Assembly: GCA_964609135.1 (NCBI GenBank)
Contig: CAZSQQ010000001.1
Coordinates: 56,673 to 120,672, forward strand
From: an uncultured Candidatus Saccharibacteria bacterium
Lineage (GTDB): Bacteria; Patescibacteriota; Minisyncoccia; UBA6257; Colwellbacteraceae
Length of the DNA: 64,000 nucleotides
Direction: 5' to 3'
Shown here: in pieces, positions 4,846 to 60,422 of the stretch
Layout of the letters: each line of letters begins with the position of its first letter
Numbering within the stretch: position 1 is the first letter of the stretch
Notes under the pieces: generated by a model
The model's input: only the letters and a program-made list of their open reading frames with translations
What the model was told of the DNA's origin: nothing
Databases searched by the model: none
Translations under genes and position numbers: made by a program

Positions 4846-4955
4846 AAAAGCATTATAACAAAAGGTGGGGACTCACGAAAGCACTGCCCCCGCCTGACGG
4901 CGGGCAAGTCTGCCACTGCTTGTCCGCCTCTGGCGGAAGCTACTTCGGCCTGAAA
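4846..4955. other. GC-rich hairpin-dense region (possible structured RNA/terminators)
   Basis: Hairpins GCCCGCC-GTCA-GGCGGGGGC and GTCCGCC-TCT-GGCGGA; about 60% GC. Confidence 0.25.
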
Positions 4956-10106: not shown

Positions 10107-11158
10107 TGCAACTTAAACCAACATCAATTTTAATACTTTTTATAATCCTCATAGCCGGTTTTTTTGCATGGAGAACTCTTTTCCGAAATGACTTCAACTT
10201 ACCGCGTGGCGGTGAAACCACCAAAGAAACGGTAATTATTCAAAGTAACCAAGATGACAAAACGACAAAAGAAATCATGACTACAAACGGGGTAAAACAC
10301 AGCGTACCGCTTGACCAAATTTTAAGCGGCGGCCCGCCCAAAGACGGAATTCCGCCCATTGATCACCCCAAATTTATTTCTGTTCAGGAGGCAAGCAAAC
10401 AACTATCAGATAAGGAACCTGGGCTGGCTATAGAAATAGACAATGTCAATCGCTTTTATCCCTTCCAAATTTTGGTATGGCACGAGATTGTAAACGATAT
10501 CATAAATGGCAAACGTGTTCTCATCACTTACTGTCCCCTTTGCCTTTCGGGCATCGTCTTTGATCCTTTGGTAAATGGGGAAGGGGTCGAATTCGGCACT
10601 TCCGGCAAGCTTTGGAATTCAAACTTGGTTATGTATGACCGCAAAACTGATTCTTTGTGGTCGCAAATTTTGGGAAAAGCAATCGTGGGAGAAAAAACCG
10701 GAACGCGCCTCGCCGTTTTGCCGTCCGATCAGATTCGATTTGGAGAGTGGAAAAAACTGCATCCTAATGGAGAGGTGCTTTCGCGAGATACGGGAGCAAC
10801 GCGTTTTTATGGACAAGATCCGTACGGGGACTACTATACGACGCCCGGCACTTTCTTCCCGGTCGGGAAGCATGACAGCCGGTTGGGTGAGAAAGAATTT
10901 ATTTTAGGAATAGTAGTGAACGGTAAGGCCAAAGCCTATTGGCCGGCTGCAGTAAAAAAAGCCGGAACCATCGAAGATATTTTTGGGGGTAAGACAATCA
11001 TAGCCAAGTATGAGACAGATATTGATGCTGTACGCCTCTATTCCGCCGAAGGCGGATCCGCCTCTGGCGGAGAAAAGAAATTAGTGCGAATAAATCCGTT
11101 CGGCGCGTTCTGGTTTTCATGGGTGGCGGCGCATCCCGATACGGAACTTTATAAATAA
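10107..11158 (+). CDS. DUF3179-like secreted/membrane-anchored protein
   Basis: N-terminal TM, DGIPPIDHPKF motif typical of DUF3179. Confidence 0.5.
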
Positions 11159-14444: not shown

Positions 14445-14708
14445 ATGGTTAGGACAATAAAACAAAGCGAGAAAGATTTATACCAATGCGGGGAGTGCGG
14501 CTTTCATTACGAAGATCGCGTACAAGCCGAGAAATGCGAGGAGTGGTGCAAAGAACATCACAGTTGCAACATAAAAATCACTGCAGGTGACGGGAATCGA
14601 ACCCGCGTATCTTGCTTGCCCCGTGACCATAACAAGGATTGCTTGCTCTTTGTGAGCGGACGATGGGAATGGTTCGACTGCGCTCACCACAAGTCGAACC
14701 CCCTTTGA
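14445..14708 (+). CDS. small zinc-ribbon protein (paralog of 37228-37404); 3' end uncertain
   Basis: YQCGECGFHYED...KCEEWCKEHHSCN; the ORF has no stop until 14708 and runs through the tRNA-like element starting about 14582. Confidence 0.4.
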   Translation: MVRTIKQSEKDLYQCGECGFHYEDRVQAEKCEEWCKEHHSCNIKITAGDGNRTRVSCLPRDHNKDCLLFVSGRWEWFDCAHHKSNPL

Positions 14709-25464: not shown

Positions 25465-25576
25465 TTTATTAATTTGGGTAATGACACTTTATGCTTCGGC
25501 CCTCCGGCCTCGCTCAGGGCGGGCAAGTTCAGGATTGCGCATTGCCTTAACGACCATGGCAAAGCCTTAACTATTT

Positions 25577-26824: not shown

Positions 26825-29365
26825 CTACGCCCCATGACACCTTTTATATTTCTTGCCGCTACCACAAGGGCAGGGGTCGTTCCGGCCGACTTTCTTGCCG
26901 GGATCTCGGAGCGGCAACTCCGACTTTTCGGCCGGAGCTCCTCCGCCGCCTTCCGAAACCGACTCCAACTTAAATATATTATTGAAAACCCAACCCTCAA
27001 AATTGGCTCCCATTTCCTTGAAAAGCTCGTAACTGTCCCTACGGTACTCAACCAGCGGATCGTGCTGGCCATAAGCTCTAATCCGCACTGACTCGGATAA
27101 GGCCTCGATGTTCTCAAGGTGGTTCATCCACAGGAAGTCCAAAACCGATAGAATCTGGCCCTTAACCCCGCTAAAGCTCTTATAGTTCGCGATTCTCTCC
27201 TCCGCCAGGTCTTTCGCCCTTATGAAAGCCCTATCCCAGTCGTCGGAGGGTTTAATCTCATCCGAGTCGGGTTTCACCAAACCGACGGTCTTAACCGCGT
27301 TCACCAGCTCCTCAGTGCCGATATTCACTTCTTCCAAACGGTTTAAATAGTTATTAACGGCGTCTCTCACTATTTCCCTCAAATCGTCCTCGCTTAAAGC
27401 GGTCAAAATCCGATGACGCTTGCCGTAAAAATTAAGTCTCTGCTTATTTAAAACGTCGTCATACTCGAGCAAATGATGGCGAGCGTCAAAATTGATTCCC
27501 TCAACCTTGCTTTGCGCCTGCTTAATGGCGTTGCTCACGATTCCGCTCTCGATTGGCACGTCATCGGGCAAATCAAATTTTTCCATGAGTCCTTTGATCC
27601 TGTCTCCGCCGAAGATCCTCATCAGATCATCTTCCAGAGACAAAAAGAACTGAGACGATCCCGGATCTCCCTGTCTGCCGGCCCTGCCGCGAAGCTGATT
27701 GTCGATCCTTCGCGCCTCGTGCCTTTCGGTTCCTATAACGTGGAGGCCTCCTAACTCCTTAACCCTTCGAGTTTCCTCAGAGCTCGGTGGGTTACCACCG
27801 AGAATAATGTCCACGCCGCGGCCGGCCATGTTGGTCGCCAAGGTCACCGCCCCCATTCTTCCGGCCTGCGCGATGATTGCGCCTTCCCGCTCGTTATTTT
27901 TGGCATTCAATATCTCAAAAGGAATTCCCGCCTCTTTAAAGAGTTTCCCCAAAGCTTCGTTCTTTTCAATCGAAACCGTGCCGACCAAAATCGGCTGCCC
28001 CAAGGCATGTCTTCTTTCAATCTCCTCCGCAATCGCCCGATACTTGGCTTTAAGATTCTTATAGACCAAATCGGGTAAACCTTCCCTCACGAGCGGGCGG
28101 TTCGGCGGAATGCTTTCCACTTCCAGCTTGTAAACCTTGTGGAATTCCTCGGCCGAAGTCTGGGCCGTTCCCGTCATTCCGGAGAGCTTCCTATACAGTC
28201 TGAAATAATTCTGGATGGTAATCTGGGCAAGGGTTTTGGTTTCCTCTTGGATTCTCACTCCTTCCTTGGCCTCGATCGCCTGATGAAGTCCGGCCGAGTA
28301 CCGGCGCCCGAAAAGCAAACGACCGGTAAACTGATCAACTATGACAACTTGACCGTCACGCACAACATAATCCTTGTCTCTTTGGAAAAGAGCCTTGGCC
28401 TTCAAACTGGCCTCAAGGTAATGGACCAGCTGCAGGTTCTCCAGGGCGTATAAATCCCTGATTCCCGTCTGCCGCTCAACCTTGTTTATCCCCGGCTCGG
28501 TTATTTCAACCGTCTTAAGTTTCTCATCAAGCGCGTAGTCCTCGCCGGCCTTCAAATATCCCGCGGCTCTGGCAAAAACACGGTAATAATCCGAAGACTG
28601 CGTGTCCGGATAAGAAATTATAAGCGGAGTTCGCGCTTCATCAATCAAAATGGAGTCAACCTCGTCGATAATGGCGAAATTATGGCCGCGCTGGACTTGA
28701 TTTTGAAGGCTGGGAGCCAAGTTATCTCTTAGATAATCAAAGCCGAACTCGTGATTGGTCCCGTAGGTGATGTGAGCGAGATAGGCTTCACGACGTGACG
28801 CTGGGCGAAGGAACTCTTCTTGAACCAAGAAACTGCCGGTCGTATCTCTTTCCTTGTCAGCCAGAGCTTTCCCTTCCTTAGATATATGCCATTCAGGATC
28901 ATAGATGTAGGCGCCTTCGTGAACCAAACAAGCGACCTGAAGACCTAAAAAGCTGTAGATTTGTCCCATCCAGACGGTATCGCGTTTGGCCAGGTAATCG
29001 TTCACCGTAATAATATGAACTCCTCGCCCCGAGAGGGCATTCAGGTAAGCCGGAGAAGTCGCGGCCAAAGTTTTTCCTTCACCCGTTAACATTTCAGCAA
29101 TCGCTCCGCGGTGAAGAACCAGGCCGCCCCAAAGCTGGACGTCAAAATGCCTTTGCCTCAAAGTACGCCTCCCGGCTTCCCTAACCAGTGCAAAAGCCAT
29201 GGGCAAAAGGTCGTCCAGGTTCTCTCCCTCTTCGGCTCTTTTCTTTAATCCCAAACTCTCTTCCTTAAGGCCTTCGTCGCTCAATCCCTTTATTTTTTCT
29301 TCCAAGGAATTCACTGCCGCGATCTCGCCCGGCGGATTACCCCTGCCAAAGTTAAAAAAAACCAT
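26825..29365 (-). CDS. secA: preprotein translocase ATPase SecA
   Basis: DEAD-motor motifs and C-terminal zinc finger CPCGSGKKYKRCHG; 846 aa. Confidence 0.9.
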   Translation of the reverse strand: MVFFNFGRGNPPGEIAAVNSLEEKIKGLSDEGLKEESLGLKKRAEEGENLDDLLPMAFALVREAGRRTLRQRHFDVQLWGGLVLHRGAIAEMLTGEGKTLAATSPAYLNALSGRGVHIITVNDYLAKRDTVWMGQIYSFLGLQVACLVHEGAYIYDPEWHISKEGKALADKERDTTGSFLVQEEFLRPASRREAYLAHITYGTNHEFGFDYLRDNLAPSLQNQVQRGHNFAIIDEVDSILIDEARTPLIISYPDTQSSDYYRVFARAAGYLKAGEDYALDEKLKTVEITEPGINKVERQTGIRDLYALENLQLVHYLEASLKAKALFQRDKDYVVRDGQVVIVDQFTGRLLFGRRYSAGLHQAIEAKEGVRIQEETKTLAQITIQNYFRLYRKLSGMTGTAQTSAEEFHKVYKLEVESIPPNRPLVREGLPDLVYKNLKAKYRAIAEEIERRHALGQPILVGTVSIEKNEALGKLFKEAGIPFEILNAKNNEREGAIIAQAGRMGAVTLATNMAGRGVDIILGGNPPSSEETRRVKELGGLHVIGTERHEARRIDNQLRGRAGRQGDPGSSQFFLSLEDDLMRIFGGDRIKGLMEKFDLPDDVPIESGIVSNAIKQAQSKVEGINFDARHHLLEYDDVLNKQRLNFYGKRHRILTALSEDDLREIVRDAVNNYLNRLEEVNIGTEELVNAVKTVGLVKPDSDEIKPSDDWDRAFIRAKDLAEERIANYKSFSGVKGQILSVLDFLWMNHLENIEALSESVRIRAYGQHDPLVEYRRDSYELFKEMGANFEGWVFNNIFKLESVSEGGGGAPAEKSELPLRDPGKKVGRNDPCPCGSGKKYKRCHGA

Positions 29366-32270: not shown

Positions 32271-32334
32271 TGTAAAATTATATTGACCCTTCGATATGAC
32301 TCAGGGTCAATCCTGAGCCTGCCGAATGGATTGA

Positions 32335-34613: not shown

Positions 34614-35192
34614 TTACAATGAAAACTCTTTCACAACATCATAGTCGGCTCCTGTTTTATATAAATGAGACTCCATAAGTAAAAAGGATTTCGCTTTGTC
34701 GCGCCACTCAATTCTCTCTTGAAGTTCCTTTATCGGAAACGAAGAAAGTCTCTCCGGACGGAAACGGGCAAGCGTGAGATGCAGGCGAAAAGGACGCTTT
34801 TCTTCTTTTTGACCTAAGGATGCCGTGAGTTTGCGCTTGAAATCAATGAGTCTCTCGGGGGCTTGCCCTTCCGCCCAAATCAACCTTGGCTCGCGTTCAT
34901 TAGGACCGTATGTAACGTGATTGAATTCCATATCCCAGCCCACGGCTGGCCCGCCTCGGGCGGGAAATTCTTCTCTAACTGCATTGAGCTTCCGAATCAC
35001 GCTTTCAATATTCTCTTCGTACCAGGGCGGCACAAGCGTGATGTGTAAATTTTTTCCTTCGAGCCATCTTACTCTGCCCTCCGTAGCTCTCGCGAAGGAG
35101 GGCCGGCTACTTAAAATTTTCTTCTCCCATGAAAGTATCTCGTCCTGCAATTCCTTTGAGATACCGACTGCCACAAAAATACGGCGGCTCAT
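34614..35192 (-). CDS. thpR: RNA 2',3'-cyclic phosphodiesterase (LigT/ThpR, 2H family)
   Basis: Two H-x-T/S-x motifs: HITLVPP and HLTLARF. Confidence 0.75.
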   Translation of the reverse strand: MSRRIFVAVGISKELQDEILSWEKKILSSRPSFARATEGRVRWLEGKNLHITLVPPWYEENIESVIRKLNAVREEFPARGGPAVGWDMEFNHVTYGPNEREPRLIWAEGQAPERLIDFKRKLTASLGQKEEKRPFRLHLTLARFRPERLSSFPIKELQERIEWRDKAKSFLLMESHLYKTGADYDVVKEFSL

Positions 35193-43669: not shown

Positions 43670-43775
43670 TCACGCCTACCCTGAGCGACTTGTCCTGTCT
43701 GCCCTGAAAAACTTGAAGGGAGTCTCATCGAAGGAAGTCGAATGGGACCTGTCCTGAGCCGAGCCGAAGGGTACA
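43670..43775. repeat. GC-rich intergenic repeat cluster of the CCTTCG/GCTCAGG family
   Basis: ACCCTGAGCGACTTGTCCTG ... GACCTGTCCTGAGCCGAGCCGAAGGGTAC; related to repeats inside uvrC. Confidence 0.5.
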
Positions 43776-48191: not shown

Positions 48192-48250
48192 AGATACCTA
48201 AATTATGGTCATTTTCCGGCTTAAGACAACTTCTCCACCCTCACCCCGAT

Positions 48251-48293
48251 CCTTCGACGGGGGCTTCGACTGAGCTCAGCCGAATGTCCTCAG
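48251..48293. repeat. GC-rich repeat (inverted copy of element at 59568-59600)
   Basis: CTTCGACTGAGCTCAGCCGAATGTCCTCAG approximates revcomp of CTGAGGACATTCGACCGAGCTCAGTCGAGG. Confidence 0.6.
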
Positions 48294-48304
48294 AACAAGT
48301 TAGC

Positions 48305-49537
48305 CTAAATCAGCTTCTCTATTCTAACACCAATTAACCTTATCTTTTTATTTCGAGGATTTTCTCTTTTATCCAAAAACGGCGCAAGCAACCGCAACGC
48401 CTCAAATTTCAGAGTTCCCAAGTCTGACGCTGGTTTAGCTAAAGTATGCGCCCGGGTTTTAGTCTCAAAGTCCGCGAAACGTACCTTAATCGCCACCGTC
48501 CTAAACCCCCTCAATTCGCCTATTCGCCTATTCCCGCCGGAGGCGGGCAGGCGCGCTTGTCCGCCCCTGGCGGAAATTAGAGAACGGTCCGCCAAACGAT
48601 CAATAACGCTCTCGCAAAGTTCATTCAACCGCTCAGAAATAAATCTCGCATCCTTCGTATCCTCCGAAAAAGTTTCCTCTTCTCCGATTGATTTCGCTTC
48701 ATACTCTTCTACGACCGGTGAATCATCTCTACCTCTTACTTTTTCATACAAATCCAGTCCCCATTTGCCCATCATCTTTTCCATTTCCTCTTTCGAAAAC
48801 TTTTTCATGTCGCGGACCAGTTTCACGCCCAACTTCAAAAACATTTCTTCAGTCTTCGGCCCTATCCCCGGAATCTTCCGAATATGCATAGGCTCCAAAA
48901 ACGCTTCGGCCTCTTCCTCACGCACAATAGTCAGTCCATCGGGCTTATTCATTCCCGAGGCAATCTTCGCAATCAATTTATTAGGCCCCACGCCAACCGA
49001 TACCGTGAGCTTCCGTTTTTCTTTAACTTCCTTTTTTATCTTTTTGCAAAGCTCCCTCGCTTTTTCATACCTATCATCAACCATTCGCCTATTCGCGCGA
49101 ATTAGAGAATGGTCTCCGGCAACGAAACTCAATCCTTCGGCAGACTCAGGATTGACCCTGAACAGAGTCGAAGGGGTCAAATCTGCGTAAGCTTCGTCAA
49201 CACTTGCCTGTTCAACCAGTGCAACATGTGTACGAATGATTTCCATTATCTTTTCGGATTCCTCCGCATACTTTCCCATGTTCACTCCGATGAAAACAGT
49301 CTCTGGCTCGCCCTTCCTCCTTGCAATTTCCGACAACCTCCAAGCTTCCGATATAGGCATGGCCGAATGGATCCCATACTCCCGCGCCTTATAATTCGCG
49401 GTTGAAACAACGCCTCTCCCGCGCCCATCCATCGGATCCGCCCCCACCACAACTGGCAATCCCTCAAGCCGCGGCTTATCCCGCTCCTCAATCGCGGCAA
49501 AGAAAGCGTCCATATCGAAATGAGCAACTATCCTCAT
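48305..49537 (-). CDS. dinB: DNA polymerase IV (DinB), with two in-frame repeat insertions
   Basis: MRIVAHFDMDAFFAAIEERD N-terminus; 410 aa (about 50 aa longer than typical) because of repeat-encoded inserts. Confidence 0.85.
   Translation of the reverse strand: MRIVAHFDMDAFFAAIEERDKPRLEGLPVVVGADPMDGRGRGVVSTANYKAREYGIHSAMPISEAWRLSEIARRKGEPETVFIGVNMGKYAEESEKIMEIIRTHVALVEQASVDEAYADLTPSTLFRVNPESAEGLSFVAGDHSLIRANRRMVDDRYEKARELCKKIKKEVKEKRKLTVSVGVGPNKLIAKIASGMNKPDGLTIVREEEAEAFLEPMHIRKIPGIGPKTEEMFLKLGVKLVRDMKKFSKEEMEKMMGKWGLDLYEKVRGRDDSPVVEEYEAKSIGEEETFSEDTKDARFISERLNELCESVIDRLADRSLISARGGQARLPASGGNRRIGELRGFRTVAIKVRFADFETKTRAHTLAKPASDLGTLKFEALRLLAPFLDKRENPRNKKIRLIGVRIEKLI
48512..48588. repeat. palindromic repeat copy A (expanded variant) inside dinB
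   Basis: CAATTCGCCTATTCGCCTATTC-[CCGCCGGAGGCGGGCAGGCGCGCTTGTCCGCCCCTGGCGG]-AAATTAGAGAA; encodes ...SARGGQARLPASGGNRRIGE... Confidence 0.6.
49081..49112. repeat. palindromic repeat copy B inside dinB
   Basis: CCATTCGCCTATTCGCGCGAATTAGAGAATGG (arms CCATTC/GAATGG; core palindrome ATTCGCGCGAAT); encodes LIRANRRMV in-frame. Confidence 0.65.
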
Positions 49538-50019: not shown

Positions 50020-50595
50020 ATGGGAAAGGTTCGGCATGGCACGATCGAACTCATCGTGGGCGGCATGTACTCGGGGAAGAGCGAAGAGCTTATCCGCCGA
50101 GTCGAAAGGGTCTTGATTGCCAAGCGCGCGGTGCAGGTCTTCAAACCGTCGATCGTCCCGGGTGAAGGGGAGGTTGTAGCCCACAACGGCAGGTCGGCGG
50201 CGGCGATCGCAGTCACGAGTCCTGAGGAGCTTATTCAACTACTCAAGCCCGAGACCGCGACCGTTGCAATCGACGAAATCCAGTTCTTCGACTATCGCAT
50301 CGTGAATGCCGTCCGCGCAATCGCAAAGCAAGGGCGGCGCGTCATCTGCGCTGGTCTTGACCTCGACTTCCGCGGAGAACCCTTCGGCTCGGTGCCGGAA
50401 CTCTTGGCCGTCGCGCAGGAGGTCATGAAGCTCACGGCCATCTGTGTCGTCTGCGGAGAACCCGCTACCATGAGCCAGCGGCTCGTGGACGGGAATCCCG
50501 CGAAGTGGGACGACCCAACGGTCGTAATCGGCGCCGAAGAGAAGTATGAAGCGCGCTGCCCTGAGTGCCACGAGATCGAACGACCGGTACCATAG
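50020..50595 (+). CDS. tdk: thymidine kinase
   Basis: GGMYSGKSEEL P-loop; C-terminal zinc ribbon CVVCGEPA...CPECH; about 60% GC. Confidence 0.85.
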   Translation: MGKVRHGTIELIVGGMYSGKSEELIRRVERVLIAKRAVQVFKPSIVPGEGEVVAHNGRSAAAIAVTSPEELIQLLKPETATVAIDEIQFFDYRIVNAVRAIAKQGRRVICAGLDLDFRGEPFGSVPELLAVAQEVMKLTAICVVCGEPATMSQRLVDGNPAKWDDPTVVIGAEEKYEARCPECHEIERPVP

Positions 50596-50620
50596 AAAGG
50601 CCAGGTGGTACAATAAAGGC

Positions 50621-51508
50621 ATGCGACAGTACTTAGACGTCCTATCCAAAGTCATGACCGAAGGGACTGACCGCTCCGATACGGAGGAAGTTTCAACTCG
50701 CTCCACGACAGCGCAATTCATGCGCTTCAACATGCAGGACGGCTTCCCGGCAGTCACGACGAAACGGCTCGCCTTCAGAACGGCGGTCGCGGAACTTCTC
50801 TGGTTCATCTCGGGGAGTTCGAACGTAAACGAACTCCACAAATTAGGCGTTAAGATCTGGGATGGGGACGCCTATAAGCCCTCCTGGCTTCCAAAAGCGC
50901 AATTTCCCGGAGATGTCGGACGTAATTACTCCAAGCAGTGGCGCGAGTGGCTCGCGCCCGACGGCCGGCATGTGGACCAACTAGGCATAGCGATAAATCT
51001 AATCCAGGAAAAACCGTGGACGGCAAGAGCGCTCGTCTCGGCCTGGAACCCGGGCGAACTCGAAGCGACGGCGCTTCCCGCCTGCCACGTACTCTTCCAG
51101 TTCTACTCGGCCGGCGGAAAGCTCTCGCTAACCATGTACCAGAGAAGCTGCGACATGTTCCTCGGCGTCCCCTTCGACACCGCGGAATTCGCCCTGCTTC
51201 TCCACCTCGTGGCACAGATCACGAACCTCGAACCGTGGGAACTGATTCACGTTCTCGCGGAGCCGCATATCTATGAGGGGCACTTCGAGGCCGTGAAGGA
51301 ACAGCTCACGCGCGAACCATTTCCGCATCCGAAGCTCTGGCTGAATCCGGAGCTAAGGACGCTCGATCAAGTGGTCGCGAAATACCGCGAACTCCTGCAA
51401 AGGGCGGAAGGCGAAGAAAAGCCCCTGAAGCTCATGGATGAAGTGGCCCGGCTCGAGGGCTATAAGTCGCATGAACCCCTGAAGGCCGAAATGGTGGTCA
51501 TCAAATGA
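50621..51508 (+). CDS. thyA: thymidylate synthase (ThyA)
   Basis: MRQYLDVL...RFNMQDGFPAVTTKR...ELLWFISG; catalytic Cys in ALPACHVLFQFY; start trimmed from ORF 50546. Confidence 0.85.
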   Translation: MRQYLDVLSKVMTEGTDRSDTEEVSTRSTTAQFMRFNMQDGFPAVTTKRLAFRTAVAELLWFISGSSNVNELHKLGVKIWDGDAYKPSWLPKAQFPGDVGRNYSKQWREWLAPDGRHVDQLGIAINLIQEKPWTARALVSAWNPGELEATALPACHVLFQFYSAGGKLSLTMYQRSCDMFLGVPFDTAEFALLLHLVAQITNLEPWELIHVLAEPHIYEGHFEAVKEQLTREPFPHPKLWLNPELRTLDQVVAKYRELLQRAEGEEKPLKLMDEVARLEGYKSHEPLKAEMVVIK

Positions 51509-52029
51509 TCGGACGAAGCGTGATCTCCATCGTGGCCGCGATGGACCGGAACCGCGTGATAGGGGTCGAGAACCGCCTGCCGTGGCTCATGCCAGCCGAC
51601 ATGAAGAGATTCCGAGATCTCACGATCGGGAAACCCATCCTCATGGGCCGGAAGACCTTCGAATCCATTCTCGCCTCGCTCGGGAAACCACTCCCCAACC
51701 GCCTGAACATCATTCTCACTCGTGACCAGAACTACAAGGCGCCGAACGGCTGCCGAGTGGTTCATTCTGTAGATGATGCACTCGCAATGGCCAACGGAGC
51801 GGAAGAGGTGATGGTCGCAGGCGGCGCGGACATCTTCCAGCAATTCCTTCCCTACGCCGATTCGGTCTACATGACCGAAATCGATTCTGACTTCGAGGGC
51901 GACGCCTCCTTCCCAGAGATGCCGGAGACGGAGTGGCGGCGGGTTCAGAGCGTCCGACACGAACCGGACGAGAAGAATCCTCATCCCTACTCCTTCCAGC
52001 TCTACGTTCGGAAGGAGAAGCTGAACTAG
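51505..52029 (+). CDS. folA: dihydrofolate reductase
   Basis: ISIVAAMDRNRVIG...LPW...GRKTFESI; ATGA overlap with thyA. Confidence 0.85.
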   Translation: MIGRSVISIVAAMDRNRVIGVENRLPWLMPADMKRFRDLTIGKPILMGRKTFESILASLGKPLPNRLNIILTRDQNYKAPNGCRVVHSVDDALAMANGAEEVMVAGGADIFQQFLPYADSVYMTEIDSDFEGDASFPEMPETEWRRVQSVRHEPDEKNPHPYSFQLYVRKEKLN

Positions 52030-52048
52030 TCCTTTCACCGCAAACGGG

Positions 52049-52080
52049 AGCCCGCACGAGTACTCGTGCGGGCTCTTCAA
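52049..52080 (+). terminator. terminator-like perfect hairpin after folA
   Basis: GAGCCCGCACGAGT/ACTCGTGCGGGCTC followed by TTCAAATTT. Confidence 0.45.
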
Positions 52081-54957: not shown

Positions 54958-55788
54958 TTACAAAGTGGTAATGGGCCTCGATTGAAGTATATAGATGTTC
55001 TCTTTCTCCAAAGCCCATTCTATATCTTGCGGTGAACCGTAATGATTTTCAATCTTTAGAGCCAATTTAGCCAATTCTATAACCTGATCATCATCTAGGG
55101 CCTGCTCACTCTTTTTATCGTCCGGTACTTCCACTTCTTTTGTCTCACCATTTTTAAAAATCATCATTGTCTCCTGGGTTTTAATGTCACTGTTTTTTAT
55201 CTCCAGCGTTTTCTTATCAACGACAAAACTGTCTGGAGTAATCATCCCCTGGACCATCATTTCTCCCAAGCCGAAGCCGGCCTCAATCATCAACTCGTTC
55301 TCATCTTTTGTAATGGGGTTTACCGTAAAGACAACTCCGGAAACCTCACTATCAATCATTTTTTGAACTACTACAGCTACCGCCAACTGGTCTTCGCTAA
55401 CATTCTTGTCCTCCGCATAGGCCAGAGCTCCTTTAGATTTAATCGAGTTACAGCAATCCTTTATTCTGTTAATCAAATCTTCCCTGGTTACGTTTAAATA
55501 TGTCTCGAGTTGTCCCGCCCAAGAGGCTGACGAGGAATCTTCAGCCACTGCCGAAGATCTAACTGCAACTCTTTCTGCCCCTAACTTGTCAAAGGCGCTT
55601 AGAATCTCTGCTCTAAGAGCCTCATCGACGGAGTCATATGCGAACTTCCTAAAAACATCGGTGGTAACAATAAAACCAGGGGGCACCGGAATGCCAGCCC
55701 TAGTTAACTCGCCCAGCGACGCCCCCTTACCGCCTACGAGAGAGCTATCGCTCAAACTTACCTCTTCGAATCGGAGCAGGTTTGCCAT
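54958..55788 (-). CDS. stand-alone PEP synthase/PPDK N-terminal ATP-binding (ATP-grasp) domain protein
   Basis: LVGGKGASLGEL...GIPVPPGFIVTTDVF ... PQDIEWA...IYILQSRPIT; 276 aa with no swivel or PEP-utilizers_C domain. Confidence 0.75.
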   Translation of the reverse strand: MANLLRFEEVSLSDSSLVGGKGASLGELTRAGIPVPPGFIVTTDVFRKFAYDSVDEALRAEILSAFDKLGAERVAVRSSAVAEDSSSASWAGQLETYLNVTREDLINRIKDCCNSIKSKGALAYAEDKNVSEDQLAVAVVVQKMIDSEVSGVVFTVNPITKDENELMIEAGFGLGEMMVQGMITPDSFVVDKKTLEIKNSDIKTQETMMIFKNGETKEVEVPDDKKSEQALDDDQVIELAKLALKIENHYGSPQDIEWALEKENIYILQSRPITTL

Positions 55789-56635
55789 GACGTGCGACGG
55801 GCAATTTGTATTCTTTACCCTTGATTGTAGTCTCGGTCACTCCACTAGAATCAACAGCGATTCCTATGCCTTCATTATAACCGGCAGAAAAATCTTCTTC
55901 CGGGGCTCCGACAACTCTTTGAACAAAGGGGTCTAGGCCATCGCCGTGAGTTACCATCCAAACGGCTAATTTTCTGCCGGGGTGTTGGCGATGATAAAAT
56001 TCGGCAAACCTAGCGGCGACATTTACGCCCTCATTGACCCTGGTGGCAATCTGGTCTGGGCCTTCGGCCCCTAATTCTTCTCTTTTTTCTCGATAAGTAT
56101 CCCTATTAAAAGCTTGCCAAAAGGCTGGCGGCTGCTTACCGCCGAACTGACCTCGCAAAAATTTCGCAAATTCAGGAACTTGAAACATCAATCCTTCACC
56201 TAACTTAACATCCGGTCGAGAAACGTTACCCTTAAATCTCCCTGAGTTATTTAGAAGTTGACCCTCTGGAAGACCCAATTCCTTAAGTTTTTTAGAGATC
56301 TCTCCAGCTATAATTTCGGCTGTTTCTCTGGCTCTTTGTCCCAGCCTTTCATCATCCAGCCAAAAGGTTGGGCTGTTGAGTATCAAAAAGTCTTTGGTTT
56401 CTGGATGTTCTTCTAAAATGGCGGCAATCCTCTCGTCAGCCCTCTTTCTCGCTTCCTCAATTCCCTCTGCCGTAAGGTGGCCGTAAGCTCTTTCCTCTTC
56501 AGTCAAATTGTCTGGATCAGCCGGCCGGCGGTTATCGTATCTGCCATGCCTTTGGAGAACTATCAAAGTCTCCCAATCCTCACGAGGTATTTCCGGAGCG
56601 ACAACTTGTTCTGGTACACCTTCAAATTTATCCAT
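55745..56635 (-). CDS. histidine-phosphatase-superfamily (phosphoglycerate-mutase-fold) protein
   Basis: RHG motif (LQRHGRY) and second His (VTHGDG); 44-nt overlap with downstream gene. Confidence 0.5.
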   Translation of the reverse strand: MDKFEGVPEQVVAPEIPREDWETLIVLQRHGRYDNRRPADPDNLTEEERAYGHLTAEGIEEARKRADERIAAILEEHPETKDFLILNSPTFWLDDERLGQRARETAEIIAGEISKKLKELGLPEGQLLNNSGRFKGNVSRPDVKLGEGLMFQVPEFAKFLRGQFGGKQPPAFWQAFNRDTYREKREELGAEGPDQIATRVNEGVNVAARFAEFYHRQHPGRKLAVWMVTHGDGLDPFVQRVVGAPEEDFSAGYNEGIGIAVDSSGVTETTIKGKEYKLPVARHGKPAPIRRGKFER

Positions 56636-56662
56636 ATTCCAAAAAGGATAATGCTATAAACA

Positions 56663-57805
56663 CTATAAAGTGTCAAGACTAAAGGGTGTTGGATCTATAG
56701 TAAACACTTTATTTTTCAACTCCATCGGCAAATACCAAACCAACTGGTAGAACATACCAGCATGACCGGTTTTAGCCAACGGAACGTTGGGAGAAACGAT
56801 GGCTCTAACTTTATCGTGAATGCCAAACCATAACGGCAACAGCGTAGGATCCAGTGCGCCCATAATGTCCTTATACATCGAGAAATTTCGCGCCTGTTCG
56901 TATGATAAGATGAATAACTCGTATTCTTCTTGAGTTAGTTTCTCTTTGGCTTGCTCCTTCAAAGATTCAATACGAGATTTCATTTCCTCATATCTTTTCA
57001 CGAGAGATTCGTTTTCACCCCGAAATTCAACCGCGTGAGTTAACATATTGTAAAGTGGCAACATAGAATCACGCATTCTGGTTTGTTCCAACGGTACAGA
57101 CAATTCTTTTTTAAAAGAAGCACTATCGGGGTCCGTTTCATCATTTATTACCTCCTGAATTATTTTGGCTATTTTATTCCAAAGAACGTTAATTTCACTA
57201 GTATTTTTGTGAGTGTGGGCATCTATAAGCATAGTTATCTCGGCAACTGGGTCCTTAGTTTTGGGGTTGTTTGCAAGTAAATGAACAAGTTTTACGCCGC
57301 TTAAGGCCTGACGAAGATATAAGTCGGCATACTCGCTCTGTAGCAGGTCTCGCTGCACGCGAACAACTCGCCCCTCAAAATCCTCTACGTCTTCAGTCGC
57401 ATCAATAAACTTACGTATCAAATTTTTAAGGTTATCAACATAAAAGTCGTGCAGTGGGCCATCAGCAAATAAGTAATTGACTACCCAAAAACGATAACAG
57501 AACAGTTTATTGAATCTCTGATCTGTGTTAACCAAAAACTCCAGATTTTTCTGATCTCCGCTCTCGTAATCCTTTTTAATCTTATCGAATCCGGCAAACA
57601 ACTCGTCGTGTGCCCAATCTCCGTATTCTTGATATTTCTTAGAATCCGCACCAACCTTTTGAGCAATTTCTTCAAAATACGGCACAATGGGAGGAAACTT
57701 TCTAGGGTAAGTAAACATAAACCCCTCGATGTCATTGGGTATATATCTAGGAAACTTTAATAATTGCTCGTCAATCTTCATAAATGTAACCATCATTACC
57801 GTCAA
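56663..57805 (-). CDS. hypothetical protein (operon partner of GHKL/PEP-swivel protein)
   Basis: 380 aa, no recognised motif; 35-nt overlap with upstream gene. Confidence 0.4.
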   Translation of the reverse strand: MTVMMVTFMKIDEQLLKFPRYIPNDIEGFMFTYPRKFPPIVPYFEEIAQKVGADSKKYQEYGDWAHDELFAGFDKIKKDYESGDQKNLEFLVNTDQRFNKLFCYRFWVVNYLFADGPLHDFYVDNLKNLIRKFIDATEDVEDFEGRVVRVQRDLLQSEYADLYLRQALSGVKLVHLLANNPKTKDPVAEITMLIDAHTHKNTSEINVLWNKIAKIIQEVINDETDPDSASFKKELSVPLEQTRMRDSMLPLYNMLTHAVEFRGENESLVKRYEEMKSRIESLKEQAKEKLTQEEYELFILSYEQARNFSMYKDIMGALDPTLLPLWFGIHDKVRAIVSPNVPLAKTGHAGMFYQLVWYLPMELKNKVFTIDPTPFSLDTL

Positions 57806-59039
57806 GAATTACCCGTTGGCCGTCACGCAATAGAGCTGTGGCGGTCTGTGTGCCGACGACTGCGGGTATATTAAACTCTCTAGCCACAATTGCCGCATGG
57901 CATAAATTGCCACCCAAATCAGTAATTATTCCGCCAGCACGTCTAATGGCTAACAAAAAGTGCGGTCGCGTCATTGCTGTTACAATAATATCGCCGCGTT
58001 CTACCCGAGCCATTTCCTTTTCCATATCGCCAGACATAAACATATTTACTTGCCGAACCGTGCCAATCACTTTACCGGCTGAGGCCGGGTAACCACTCAG
58101 AACTCTTTTGGGCTTCTTCTCAAATGGCTTGAAATACTCCCGCATCGTTTCCTCTAGCTCCTTGTACTGATCGGATGATTTTAACCAGCCTTTCTTATCG
58201 TGGGTAATGGGTATGCCTTCAATGTGTAAATCACCGATAATTTGCTTGATATCTTGGTTGGGAGTAAGTCCTATTTTATCGTAGGTAGTAACCAATCGAC
58301 CGCGGCGATAATTATGGAAACCGTAATAACTCTTATTGAGCCCACTTAGTTGGTAACCCCACCATCCCCAAGCCTTACCTCCCTTAAATTCAAAAGCAAA
58401 ATCGTTCTTTTTATCGTCAATAATCTTGGGAACAAACGGCGGACAAACTTCCCCATTGAAAATCAATTCCAGTTCGCCATTTTGAACGAATGGACCGAAC
58501 CTCAAACCAAATTCTTCTTTTATGTTGCTCAATAATTTCTCGGAAAGTTTAACTTTCAACCGCCTAATAATCACTGCCGTCCCACTTTTCTCGGGATCCA
58601 CGCCTCGATTGATAACAAACGGATATTTATACCAGTCTCCGCTCTCCAGCCAATGGTCTTCGTCATACTCCATAACATATTCTTCCTCGGAATTCCTAGG
58701 GCTAGTTATTAAAGTAAATCCTTTCCCCAAAAATGATGTCGAGGTCTTGAGTCCCAGACCAAATTCTCCCAGTTGAGCTTTCTTCTCCGAAAACCCCAAT
58801 CTGATGGATTTGGCGGCTTGCTCCTCGGTCATACCTCTGCCGTTGTCCATCACGGTTATAAGATCAGGAGTTATATCCACAGAAACGCTCAACTTCTCGT
58901 TGGCCAAACGGGCATCTATGGAGTTGTCGATGAGCTCTGACAAGGCCTCCTGAATGGAATAGCCTGTCTGGCTAATCTTGGTCATAATGCTCCGGTGGGG
59001 AGATATGTCTATGTATTTGGTAGTAGATTTATCCGCCAT
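57771..59039 (-). CDS. GHKL (MORC/HATPase_c-like) ATPase fused to PEP-utilising-enzyme mobile phospho-histidine domain
   Basis: Bergerat N-box ELIDNSIDA, G1 DNGRGM, G2 GEFGLGLKTS; C-terminal GGNLCHAAIVAREFNIPAVVG (swivel His). Confidence 0.65.
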   Translation of the reverse strand: MADKSTTKYIDISPHRSIMTKISQTGYSIQEALSELIDNSIDARLANEKLSVSVDITPDLITVMDNGRGMTEEQAAKSIRLGFSEKKAQLGEFGLGLKTSTSFLGKGFTLITSPRNSEEEYVMEYDEDHWLESGDWYKYPFVINRGVDPEKSGTAVIIRRLKVKLSEKLLSNIKEEFGLRFGPFVQNGELELIFNGEVCPPFVPKIIDDKKNDFAFEFKGGKAWGWWGYQLSGLNKSYYGFHNYRRGRLVTTYDKIGLTPNQDIKQIIGDLHIEGIPITHDKKGWLKSSDQYKELEETMREYFKPFEKKPKRVLSGYPASAGKVIGTVRQVNMFMSGDMEKEMARVERGDIIVTAMTRPHFLLAIRRAGGIITDLGGNLCHAAIVAREFNIPAVVGTQTATALLRDGQRVILDGNDGYIYED

Positions 59040-59069: not shown

Positions 59070-60422
59070 TCAAGTGTTTCCCATAAAACCACTGTTTCTT
59101 AACTTCTTGTGGTAGGTGATCGCGAACCGGTGAGCTTCGTCGCGAACTCGAATCAAAACTTTTTTGGTGACGCCCTTGGGAATAGAACCTACAAACCTGT
59201 TTGCTTTCCTATCCGGACCCTTGGCGATCCCGACAGTAGGAATTCTCAAACCCGATTCTAACAAGACCTGTTTAGCCGCGTTCACCTGCCCCATTCCCCC
59301 ATCAACCAAAATCACGTCAGGCAAAGGCCAGGGATTGTGAAACCGGCGGCGCAAAACCTCTTTTAACATTCCCACGTCATTCGCTCCTATTATTGTCTTG
59401 ATCCTGAACTTACGATACTCACCCTTGTCGGGCCGGCCGTCTTTAAAGACAACCATAGAACCCACGGCATAATTGCCAGAGATGTTAGAGATGTCATACC
59501 CTTCGACGCGGCTCAGGGCGAGCCCTCCTCTGCGGCTCAGGGCGAGCCCTCCTCTGCGGCTACCCTCGGCCTGAGGACATTCGACCGAGCTCAGTCGAGG
59601 GCCTCGGGTCGAAGGCAGGGCAGGCCCCTCCACAATTTCTGGCTCGGTAATTAGGGCTATGTCCTGGATGTGCTGAAGAGCAAAAATCTGACCTCGGAAC
59701 TTCACCGCCTCTTCGAATTCCAAACTTTTACTCGCCTTCTTCATATCTTTCTCCAAAGACTTCAAAATCTGTTTTTTCTTGCCGTTAAAGAAAAGTTTTA
59801 TGTTTCTTATATTTTTCAGATAAGTTTTTCTATCGATTGCGCCAATGCAGGTGCCAGGGCAAAGCTTAATTTCATATTCAAAGCATCCCTTGGAAAACTT
59901 GCCTACCCTTCCTGGTTGATGAATGCTGAAAGGAAATATCCTTCTAATTATCTTTAAGGCGTCGCGGATGCTGGTCGCGGAAGTAAAAGGACCGAACCCT
60001 TCGACGCGGCTCAGGGCAGGCCCTCCGGCGCGGCTCAGTGCAAGTCTTTTCTCCTTACTCGTAGCAAGCTCTTTTCCCCGCACAAGCAATACGCGCGGGA
60101 ACTTATCTTTGGTAATCTCTACGTAAAGAAAACTTTTGTCATCCTTTTCCCGGACGTTATAGGGCGGACGACGTTTTTTAATAAGCTCGGCTTCCAAAAT
60201 CAGCGCCTCAATTGCAGTATCAGTTTTCTTGTAATCAATTTTCGCAATTTCACTTACCAACTTCTCCGTTTTCCAATCGCCGGAGCGCAAAAAATAACTG
60301 GAGACTCTCCGTTTCAAGTTTCCCGCTTTCCCGACATAAAGAATGCTCCCCCGCTTATCCTTCATGAGATATATGCCTGGGGTGTCCGGAAGATTTTTGT
60401 ATAAATTCTCCTTACTTTTCAC
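59070..60422 (-). CDS. uvrC: excinuclease ABC subunit C-like (GIY-YIG N-terminus, RNase-H-like C-region), with in-frame GC-rich repeat insertions
   Basis: GIY-YIG GIYLMKD...ILYVGKAGNLKRRV; C-terminal ILVDGGMGQVNAA; inserts encode ALSRVEG-type repeats. Confidence 0.7.
   Translation of the reverse strand: MKSKENLYKNLPDTPGIYLMKDKRGSILYVGKAGNLKRRVSSYFLRSGDWKTEKLVSEIAKIDYKKTDTAIEALILEAELIKKRRPPYNVREKDDKSFLYVEITKDKFPRVLLVRGKELATSKEKRLALSRAGGPALSRVEGFGPFTSATSIRDALKIIRRIFPFSIHQPGRVGKFSKGCFEYEIKLCPGTCIGAIDRKTYLKNIRNIKLFFNGKKKQILKSLEKDMKKASKSLEFEEAVKFRGQIFALQHIQDIALITEPEIVEGPALPSTRGPRLSSVECPQAEGSRRGGLALSRRGGLALSRVEGYDISNISGNYAVGSMVVFKDGRPDKGEYRKFRIKTIIGANDVGMLKEVLRRRFHNPWPLPDVILVDGGMGQVNAAKQVLLESGLRIPTVGIAKGPDRKANRFVGSIPKGVTKKVLIRVRDEAHRFAITYHKKLRNSGFMGNT
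59501..59630. repeat. GC-rich repeat block inside uvrC (tandem GCGGCTCAGGGCGAGCCCTCCTCT x2 plus palindromic tail)
   Basis: Tandem 24-mers at 59508-59555; the tail CCTGAGGACATTCGACCGAGCTCAGTCGAGG is an inverted match to 48264-48293. Confidence 0.65.
59998..60044. repeat. second GC-rich repeat inside uvrC
   Basis: CCTTCGACGCGGCTCAGGGCAGGCCCTCCGGCGCGGCTCAG, same family as 59501-59630. Confidence 0.6.

Follow-up and report, generated by a model that had tools for sequence, protein, structure and literature searches.

Two GC-rich blocks in a Patescibacteria uvrC gene: probable in-frame insertions of a 24-nucleotide repeat

The uvrC gene of an uncultured Patescibacteria lineage (GenBank contig CAZSQQ010000001.1) contains two GC-rich repetitive blocks, which raises the question of whether these segments belong to UvrC or entered the gene from elsewhere. 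The gene lies at 59070..60422 on the minus strand of the 64,000-nt stretch of DNA analyzed here, referred to below as the window. An earlier note, made from the letters alone, had described the blocks as members of a repeat family inserted in-frame; all its statements on the sequence hold, apart from small shifts of coordinates. We consider it likely that both blocks, at 59499..59624 (block A) and 59997..60044 (block B), are in-frame insertions of a small interspersed repeat with a 24-nt unit, and not native UvrC sequence.

The identity of the host gene is well supported. Its 450-residue product contains the Pfam domains GIY-YIG (residues 16-89), UVR (217-251) and UvrC_RNaseH (303-435), in this order, clears the equivalog cut-off of the NCBIfam model TIGR00194 (355 vs 285 bits), and is 100% identical to MBI2592583.1 from a Candidatus Colwellbacteria (Patescibacteria) metagenome-assembled genome. 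Canonical UvrC has about 600 residues and ends in an (HhH)2 DNA-binding domain; the present protein is a short form without the C-terminal HhH domain, as are all its close Patescibacteria orthologs, which have only about 400 residues. The gene remains a single open frame with all its domains despite both blocks. Block A (126 nt, 42 codons; described on the plus strand, like the units below) follows the UVR motif, directly ahead of the RNase H-like domain, and encodes PALPSTRGPRLSSVECPQAEGSRRGGLALSRRGGLALSRVEG. Block B (48 nt), likewise in-frame, comes after the GIY-YIG domain and ahead of the invariant FGPF; it encodes LALSRAGGPALSRVEG. Both are thus located between the GIY-YIG and C-terminal domains, as had been claimed, with the refinement that B precedes the middle region and A comes after the UVR motif. 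The reading frame of 59070-60422 is kept through both, and the encoded peptides, among them ...RRGGLALSRRGGLALSRVEG and RLALSRAGGPALSRVEG, are of the repetitive ALSRVEG type. The G+C content of block A is 78%, compared with a window average of about 45%.

Both blocks are built from one 24-nt unit, equivalent to 8 codons, which reads CCCTTCGAC-NNN-GCTCAGGGC-RGG. The general consensus is CCCTTCGAC-TNC-GCTCAGGGC-AGG, the middle triplet being GCG here. A covariance model derived from 136 units was run over the window without filters; the copies at 59994, 59496, 25497 and 32284 were members of the training set and are matched by construction. Unit A1 (59499..59522), the canonical CCCTTCGACGCGGCTCAGGGCGAG, scores 38.6 bits with this model as a training-set member and is also an independent pattern match. 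Units A2 (CCCTCCTCTGCGGCTCAGGGCGAG) and A3, a degenerate copy, form a 24-nt tandem duplication at 59523..59570, where Tandem Repeats Finder (TRF) reports a perfect repeat of GCGGCTCAGGGCGAGCCCTCCTCT (x2.2, period 24, 100% matches, 59508-59561) at the place of the tandem 24-mer first noticed. Because these repeats are 100% identical and their TCCTCT variant is found nowhere else in the window, the duplication was probably made in place by replication slippage and does not represent two separate insertions. The tail of block A is an inverted overlapping doublet of unit halves sharing GAGCTC (59571..59606; repeat search, partial covariance model matches on both strands). A resemblance of this tail to 48264-48293, proposed earlier, extends to the intergenic segment 48258-48293, of which 59571-59606 is an inverted near-copy (36 nt, 86% complementary; repeat family I3). 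The termini of block A are themselves inverted over 8-9 nt (CCCTTCGAC ... GTCGAAGG). Block B consists of two tandem units, CCCTTCGACGCGGCTCAGGGCAGG and CCCTCCGGCGCGGCTCAGTGCAAG, with a covariance model score of 40.3 bits; TRF places its array (x1.9, 86% matches) at 59997-60042. The two uvrC arrays are the only TRF arrays of 24-nt period in the window.

The comparison with orthologs carries most of the argument for insertion. UvrC was aligned with 20 orthologs, the DNA was threaded onto the alignment for the closest ones, and linker lengths were taken from 120 orthologs. The closest ortholog, P0002 (75% identity by BLASTP, 81% in the alignment), is without any block A and reads ...ITEPDLLSTHYQLQSRIEGYDISN, whereas the present UvrC has 44 residues between EPEIV and YDISN. 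At site B, P0002 has 12 residues compared with 24 here. The blocks occupy the two linkers of UvrC whose length varies most: the site A linker has a median of 16 residues in the 101/120 orthologs in which it could be delimited, against 46 here, and the site B linker a median of 10 (86/120 delimited), against 26. In the AlphaFold model of the protein (mean predicted local distance difference test score, pLDDT, of 62), residues 253-301, between the UVR helix and the first RNase H-like strand, are coil with a pLDDT of about 30.

These alignments also bear on the possibility that the ALSRVEG-type segments are ancestral, protein-level features of Patescibacteria UvrC, that is, native low-complexity linkers. 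Similar peptides occur at the same two linkers in seven other orthologs (P0005, P0006, P0008, P0012, P0013, P0019 and P0056), and the RLAPHR segment of P0002 at site B is faintly repeat-like. However, such segments are missing from most of the 120 orthologs and, in the case of block A, from the closest one, and the same DNA unit is found between genes as well as within unrelated ones, where it is read in three different frames. The DNA of the units speaks most directly to this point. The organisms of P0006 and P0019 carry a single 24-nt unit exactly after the native (R/K)IEG codons, GAAGGG and GAGGGA; the unit DNA at site A is CCTGCCCTGAGCCGCGTCGAAGGG in P0006 and CCCGCCCTGAGCCGAGTCGAAGGG in P0019. 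The first unit of block B is identical in 24/24 positions to the site A unit of the P0006 gene, that is, across different sites. The units that other Patescibacteria carry at these two linkers match those of this uvrC in 22-24 of the 24 bases. Among the units of this uvrC, P0006, P0019 and P0012, 0-3 of the 8 codons differ, whereas 44-66% of the same-residue codons differ between the same genes, whose synonymous sites are saturated. Since the units are near-identical at synonymous positions while the genes are saturated, their likeness does not come from orthology. On this comparison, the uvrC units are best described as a DNA element and not a conserved peptide, being either recent arrivals or constrained at the DNA level. 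The native-linker explanation is already contradicted, and we give it hardly any weight.

An error of assembly would be a more trivial source of the blocks, the units having been mis-assembled or joined as chimeras in a metagenome-assembled genome. Repeats are classic sites of mis-assembly, and a second assembly (L480, GCA_016187165.1 JACPKH010000002.1) has a contig that stops within dinB near window position 48815, with a repeat family on either side, which suggests that the repeats break short-read assemblies. Against this, a comparison of the two separate public contigs (133,924 and 28,116 nt) shows 3 differences in 14.9 kb (99.98% identity) and 0/1353 in uvrC, so that the tandem units do not collapse in this comparison, which is one of assemblies, not of reads, and of assemblies that may share reads. 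Both inserts keep the frame of an otherwise intact gene, and isolate genomes carry the unit too. We find an artefact highly improbable.

The units lie in two length-variable linkers of UvrC, just ahead of FGPF and of R-I-E-G-Y-D-I-S-N, for neither of which the AlphaFold model gives a confident structure. We propose that they are translated there as flexible loops rich in Gly, Ala, Ser and Arg. Five of the six reading frames of the unit are stop-free by hand translation, in agreement with the frames used in real ORFs. The tolerance of such inserts would follow from a unit length divisible by three and from these five open frames. Only copies in dispensable linkers would survive, with selection clearing copies elsewhere in genes, and since the genome has little intergenic space, the surviving copies would be conspicuous inside genes.

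It has also been considered that the inserts are never translated, being intervening sequences cut from the RNA or skipped by the ribosome in the manner of the GC-rich "byp" elements of yeast mitochondria. Byps are mobile GC-rich hairpins that enter coding sequence in a genome with more AT; here, too, GC-rich elements that may form hairpins sit in genes whose genome is richer in AT. Ribosomes pass over byps, which need not keep the frame, whereas all examined intragenic copies of the unit are a multiple of 3 nt long and stop-free in the host frame, in an ORF-based search that is blind to frame-breaking copies. This speaks against skipping, because an open frame would be unnecessary if the insert were skipped. 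In Rfam, no ribozyme or intron family matched: only two tRNAs reached the gathering score in the window, and nothing meaningful appeared at E values up to 10 in 59300-60200. Excision or bypass therefore seems most improbable, and translated insertions remain the preferred explanation.

The same unit occurs outside uvrC. The pattern CCTTCGN6CTCAG, with at most one mismatch, has 12 matches in the window compared with 1.09 expected, and 0/100 shuffles reach 12. A repeat search groups the copies into families D1, I2 and I3. The unit occurs solo, in head-to-tail arrays of 24-nt period and as inverted doublets. Related units proposed at 43670-43775 and 25490-25540 are both real. The first (43670..43775, minus strand) is made up of several units in the intergenic DNA downstream of the TspO gene, with covariance model matches at 43745-43774 (E = 3e-4, outside the training set) and 43695-43723. 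The second, at 25497..25540 (plus strand), is an intergenic solo unit, CCCTCCGGCCTCGCTCAGGGCGGG, with a tail, found by pattern and by sequence; its covariance model score follows by construction, because the copy belonged to the training set. The segment resembling the tail of block A belongs to a composite copy (48240..48293, plus strand) in the spacer that separates dinB from the DNA methylase gene, recovered by the repeat, pattern and covariance model searches and by sequence.

Three copies had been missed in the earlier note. One is an intergenic palindromic doublet, CCCTTCGATATGACTCAGGGTCAATCCTGAGCCTGCCGAA, at 32284..32326 (plus strand; family I2, DNA fold z-score -2.5). The second, at 14667..14705 (plus strand), is an intergenic copy, TGGT-TCGACTGCGCTC-ACCA, that adjoins tRNA-Gly (E = 0.0049, outside the training set; fold z-score -2.95). 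The third is a palindromic doublet inside dinB at 49136..49178 (minus strand; family I2), which encodes PSTLFRVNPESAEGLS and matches the covariance model at 49149 on the minus strand (E = 0.0037, outside the training set). The copies at 25497 and 14667 are thus singletons, and those at 32284, 49136 and 59571 inverted doublets. The covariance model also matches secA weakly, at 27760, probably in native sequence.

The dinB copy parallels the uvrC blocks: it is missing from the closest DinB ortholog, P0122, just as block A is missing from P0002, so the claim of in-frame insertion in both genes stands. The dinB gene (48305-49537) encodes 410 residues, compared with about 357 in orthologs, and is thus about 53 residues longer. 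Three different GC-rich repeat families occupy two loops of DinB (48514-48582, 49080-49108 and 49136-49178), and the DinB orthologs P0141, P0143, P0157 and P0191, from other Patescibacteria, carry other repeat-like inserts in the same loops.

The distribution of the unit extends far beyond this genome, and the earlier note did not recognize it as a hairpin motif common to many phyla. Exact-pattern scans covered one genome per GTDB species, JGI metagenomes and IMG/VR viral contigs, with at least 120 loci in each. The raw count of the genome scan is not above chance, about 140 chance matches being expected by our own estimate, and family membership therefore rests on the non-random free positions and flanks. 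Among the GTDB matches listed, the base ahead of the pattern is C in 113/124 copies, the three free bases are T-N-C in most, and the bases after the pattern are CAGGC, TGACA, TAAAC or CGAAC, with unrelated sequence farther out. Carriers among the matches listed include Acidobacteriota, Chloroflexota, Cyanobacteria, Bacteroidota, Planctomycetota, Spirochaetota, Nitrospirota, Proteobacteria and Patescibacteria, with more than 10 phyla in all and a carrier contig G+C content of 34-71%; the unit is near-identical from Patescibacteria to Acidobacteriota, Cyanobacteria, Bacteroidota, Chloroflexota and viral contigs. Cultured isolates are among the carriers (Edaphobacter aggregans, Treponema saccharophilum and several Flavobacteriaceae). 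Solo units dominate among the matches listed, alongside 24-nt-period arrays (L042, L175, L220 and L239) and an inverted doublet (L064). No unit was found in 5,426 complete E. coli genomes.

A plasmid collection gave four matches, of which the one inspected (H4, Trichlorobacter) is an in-frame copy in an IS91-family transposase gene. In the Trichlorobacter lovleyi plasmid pIAE1 (L483 3001-3027), this canonical unit lies near the C-terminus of the IS91-family (Y2) transposase gene and adjoins the sul1/qacEdelta1 region, and the plasmid has three matching places. The transposase gene was considered as a clue to the movement of the unit and rejected, since it provides one more in-frame copy only. 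Related motifs stand beside the unit in the flanks of the GTDB loci L029, L054, L119, L028, L037 and L071, for example GTCATCCTGAGC...GAAGGATC and GCTCAGGATGACA; their sequences suggest a wider superfamily with other stems (ATCCT/AGGAT, ATTCT/AGAAT and ATCCC/GGGAT).

In each of three viral scans one pair of the putative stem was left free, duplicate contexts were removed and non-consensus copies were counted; most of these were compensated. Pair 2-19 was Watson-Crick in 26 copies, wobble in 4 and unpaired in 12; the corresponding numbers were 17, 3 and 12 for pair 3-18 and 24, 5 and 7 for pair 4-17. Chance matches would give about 3 Watson-Crick pairs in 15, and unconstrained decay mostly single changes. 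In the 136-unit alignment the covariation score was 0.164 compared with 0.081 in shuffles, with 0/500 shuffles as high. Individual variants show the same pattern: in copy 14667 the loop TCGACTGCGCTC is unchanged, but the stem (TGGT/ACCA) is fully different and still pairs, and the P0005 organism has the stem CCTT/AAGG. These data fit a 4-bp stem (CCCT/AGGG) that closes a conserved 12-nt loop and would be kept by compensatory changes.

The pairing does not extend further in these alignments. A fifth stem pair is unsupported, being unpaired in 78/136 sequences, pairs -2/+1 to -7/+6 are at chance level, and covariation is absent from loop positions 9 and 13. The wobble counts, 12 for one strand and 9 for the other, do not tell RNA from DNA. 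The fold z-scores of blocks A and B lie between -1.4 and +1.4. The idea that the unit always sits in the loop of a larger local hairpin was rejected, as this applies to only about 6% of copies (20/349 vs 6 expected).

A further alternative is a host-selected signal: selection would maintain the unit and keep it preferentially in genome-maintenance genes, where it could serve in DNA uptake, be bound by a conserved protein or, as an RNA hairpin, tune mRNA stability or translation. Uptake sequences of Neisseria and Haemophilus are biased to genome-maintenance genes, and Patescibacteria encode DNA-uptake machinery, both of which count for this explanation. DNA uptake sequences and uptake signal sequences are likewise short conserved motifs, often in inverted pairs and inside genes. 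Conversely, they are 10-12 nt long and lineage-specific, have a density of about 1 per kb and lack a defining hairpin; the unit is a 24-nt motif that is not lineage-specific, and its density is only about 1 per 8 kb. The conservation of loop and stem pairing over many phyla, at 34-71% G+C, would agree with a host signal, as would the subset of copies at the tip of longer hairpins formed by their flanks. The balance of 12 to 9 wobble pairs, by contrast, gives no strand asymmetry that would suggest an RNA role.

The choice of host genes bears on the same question, and the earlier note had raised the possibility that repair genes are special. Intragenic repetitive extragenic palindromic (REP) elements of other bacteria are often found in uvrA, uvrB, polA, recBCD and dnaE2 (Di Nocera et al. 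2013, PMC3733652). Since this survey reports uvr, pol and rec genes as frequent hosts, the question is a fair one, and the report counts in favor of a host signal. In the window, however, Pfam identifies about 8 repair-type genes (uvrA, a uvrB fragment, uvrC, dinB, UDG, an HhH-GPD glycosylase, a PD-(D/E)XK nuclease and a DNA methylase), and only uvrC and dinB carry the 24-nt unit family, a small number noticed post hoc; uvrA, the uvrB fragment, UDG, HhH-GPD and the PD-(D/E)XK nuclease carry no unit. In AT-rich, Patescibacteria-like metagenome contigs, 0 of about 10 in-frame copies are in repair genes. The ORFs concerned, identified by eye without a family search, read as MiaA, release factor, KsgA, MetRS, RluA, glycosyltransferases and Cu-ATPase, that is, as tRNA-modification, translation, glycosyltransferase and transporter-like proteins. 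A special status of DNA-repair genes is not supported, and a host-selected signal appears to us an unlikely, though the least unlikely, of the alternatives to insertion by a spreading repeat.

For such a repeat, the nearest known relatives by behavior are the REP elements and the Rickettsia palindromic elements (RPE), but the unit fails their defining features of stem and loop geometry, GTAG/CGTC tag and lineage restriction. Like REPs and REPINs, it is a short GC-rich hairpin repeat that occurs as singletons, inverted dimers and clusters, and REPs too are mostly intergenic, with some in-frame intragenic copies that encode short peptides (PMC3733652). The dispersed singletons and inverted dimers of REPs are matched by the copies in the window, whereas exact 24-nt head-to-tail arrays, common for the unit, are described as negligible for REPs (PMC3733652). 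The REP unit is 20-40 bp long, with a stem of 8-9 bp (stated for the CGTC families) and a loop of 4-5 nt, compared with 4 bp and 12 nt here. REPs carry an unpaired GTAG or CGTC end tag, whereas the flanks of 124 unit copies show no conserved one; the CGTC within GCGTCGAAGG of this genome corresponds to AGTC in the general consensus. Most REP families do not reach beyond one species or clade, unlike the unit, which is near-identical in more than 10 phyla.

The RPE reported by Ogata and colleagues in 2000 are said to be selfish elements inserted in-frame in housekeeping genes of a small genome, at surface-exposed sites, and translated. In-frame insertion in genes for conserved proteins, with absence from orthologs, is found for the unit as well. 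By their description, however, RPE-1 elements are about 100-150 bp long and restricted to Rickettsia, whereas the unit is 24 nt long, modular and cross-phylum, and we know of no sequence similarity between the two. Variants of GCTCAGGATGA also seem to resemble the 5' end of 16S rRNA, tRNA arms, the hammerhead core and the GCGAAGC mini-hairpin, which we take to be coincidences. Miniature inverted-repeat transposable elements (MITEs), such as the Coxiella QMITEs (PMC5896051) and the Correia elements, share with the unit terminal inverted sequences, as in the 8-9 nt of block A, the ability to add peptide segments and a non-autonomous nature, which for the unit is presumed. MITEs, however, measure 100-400 bp, come from a recognizable insertion sequence (IS) and leave target-site duplications of fixed length. 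The unit gives no clear sign of these traits: no parent IS was found, and GAAGGG/GAGGGA recurs at the site A junctions of three lineages, but most solo copies have no duplication.

Database and literature searches gave a similar picture. The Pfam and NCBIfam models had no match to the repeat-encoded peptides. No published account of the unit was found by full-text searches with DNA strings, peptides and descriptive terms, although literature coverage is incomplete and a prior description is possible. The DNA strings returned unrelated primers only, and the one useful paper overall was the REP survey (PMC3733652).

How the family spreads can be proposed with low confidence only. It may behave as a selfish, non-autonomous, REP-like hairpin element, and insertion would favor junctions with microhomology to GAAGGG, the 3' end of the unit. 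The one regularity of the junctions is at site A, where in three lineages the unit follows immediately on GARGGR (GAAGGG or GAGGGA), a sequence that resembles the unit's own 3' end and would fit microhomology-guided insertion or insertion beside such a target. CGTC-class REPs are likewise without a dedicated transposase (PMC3733652). Among the scanned window ORFs of at least 120 aa, a search confined to the window, we found no REP-associated (RAYT, IS200/IS605-type Y1) or other transposase. Around the unit, no recurrent gene family emerged from 120 genome loci (all-against-all clustering of the ORFs up to 1.2 kb away from the motif), and most solo copies show no target-site duplication.

Several observations weigh against the insertion of a selfish repeat as we propose it. 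The translation of the inserts is deduced from the open frame rather than observed. The GAAGGG junction is present at site A only and not at most other insertion sites. The data give no transposase, no rule of target-site duplication and no polymorphism between empty and filled sites. The UvrC model is poor overall, with block B in a longer low-confidence stretch, and because of this the linker status of block B rests mainly on the alignment. The single-unit hairpin is marginal (-0.8 kcal/mol) and not more stable than shuffled sequence; a structure would need a partner, or the symmetry could instead be that of a site for a dimeric DNA-binding protein and not of base pairing. Finally, selfish spread alone does not readily account for near-identity over 24 nt across phyla of 34-71% G+C, which hints at a host-level function.

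Other features of the window were recorded alongside the unit. A second hairpin family, (G)TCCGCC-NCT-GGCGGA (D3), is found at 4918-4938, 11052-11072, 34945-34965 and 48555-48575, with copies inside a DUF3179 gene, a LigT-like gene and dinB. GGSASGG-type peptides beside the 24-nt unit in KsgA-like (L135) and Cu-ATPase-like (L231) ORFs of other Patescibacteria-like contigs look like products of this second family, judging from the peptides. The region 54958-59039 beside uvrC has an unusual gene set, including a stand-alone PPDK_N protein (54958-55788), a histidine phosphatase and a 380-aa ORF without an assigned family; the protein at 57771-59039 fuses a MORC-like HATPase_c_3/S5 module to a PEP-utilizers mobile domain. 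The genes for thymidine kinase, thymidylate synthase and dihydrofolate reductase at 50020-52080 form a 2-kb block of 58-59% G+C, against about 45% for the genome, on the strand opposite to its neighbors, which looks horizontally acquired.

The insertion of a small repeat into two UvrC linkers is in our view the likely explanation of the blocks. A broader proposal, which we put forward tentatively and regard as possible at best, is that the unit is an undescribed pan-bacterial, coding-compatible hairpin of 8 codons with five open frames and no element-encoded enzyme, which re-seeds 8-residue loops at the same housekeeping linkers of streamlined Patescibacteria. If this is true, its conservation across phyla would imply either recognition by a host factor that is conserved universally or frequent horizontal transfer in the form of naked DNA. 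What is unusual is the combination of a single 24-nt hairpin in many phyla, compensation in its stem, and repeated insertion at the same linkers in different lineages. For annotation and for alignments of Patescibacteria proteins, the GC-rich stretches of uvrC would be tolerated linker insertions, neither errors nor functional UvrC motifs. If the family is indeed undescribed, it may provide a tractable case of selfish DNA making new protein loops in minimal genomes, as well as a handle on a factor or process, common to bacteria, that would recognize or copy the hairpin.

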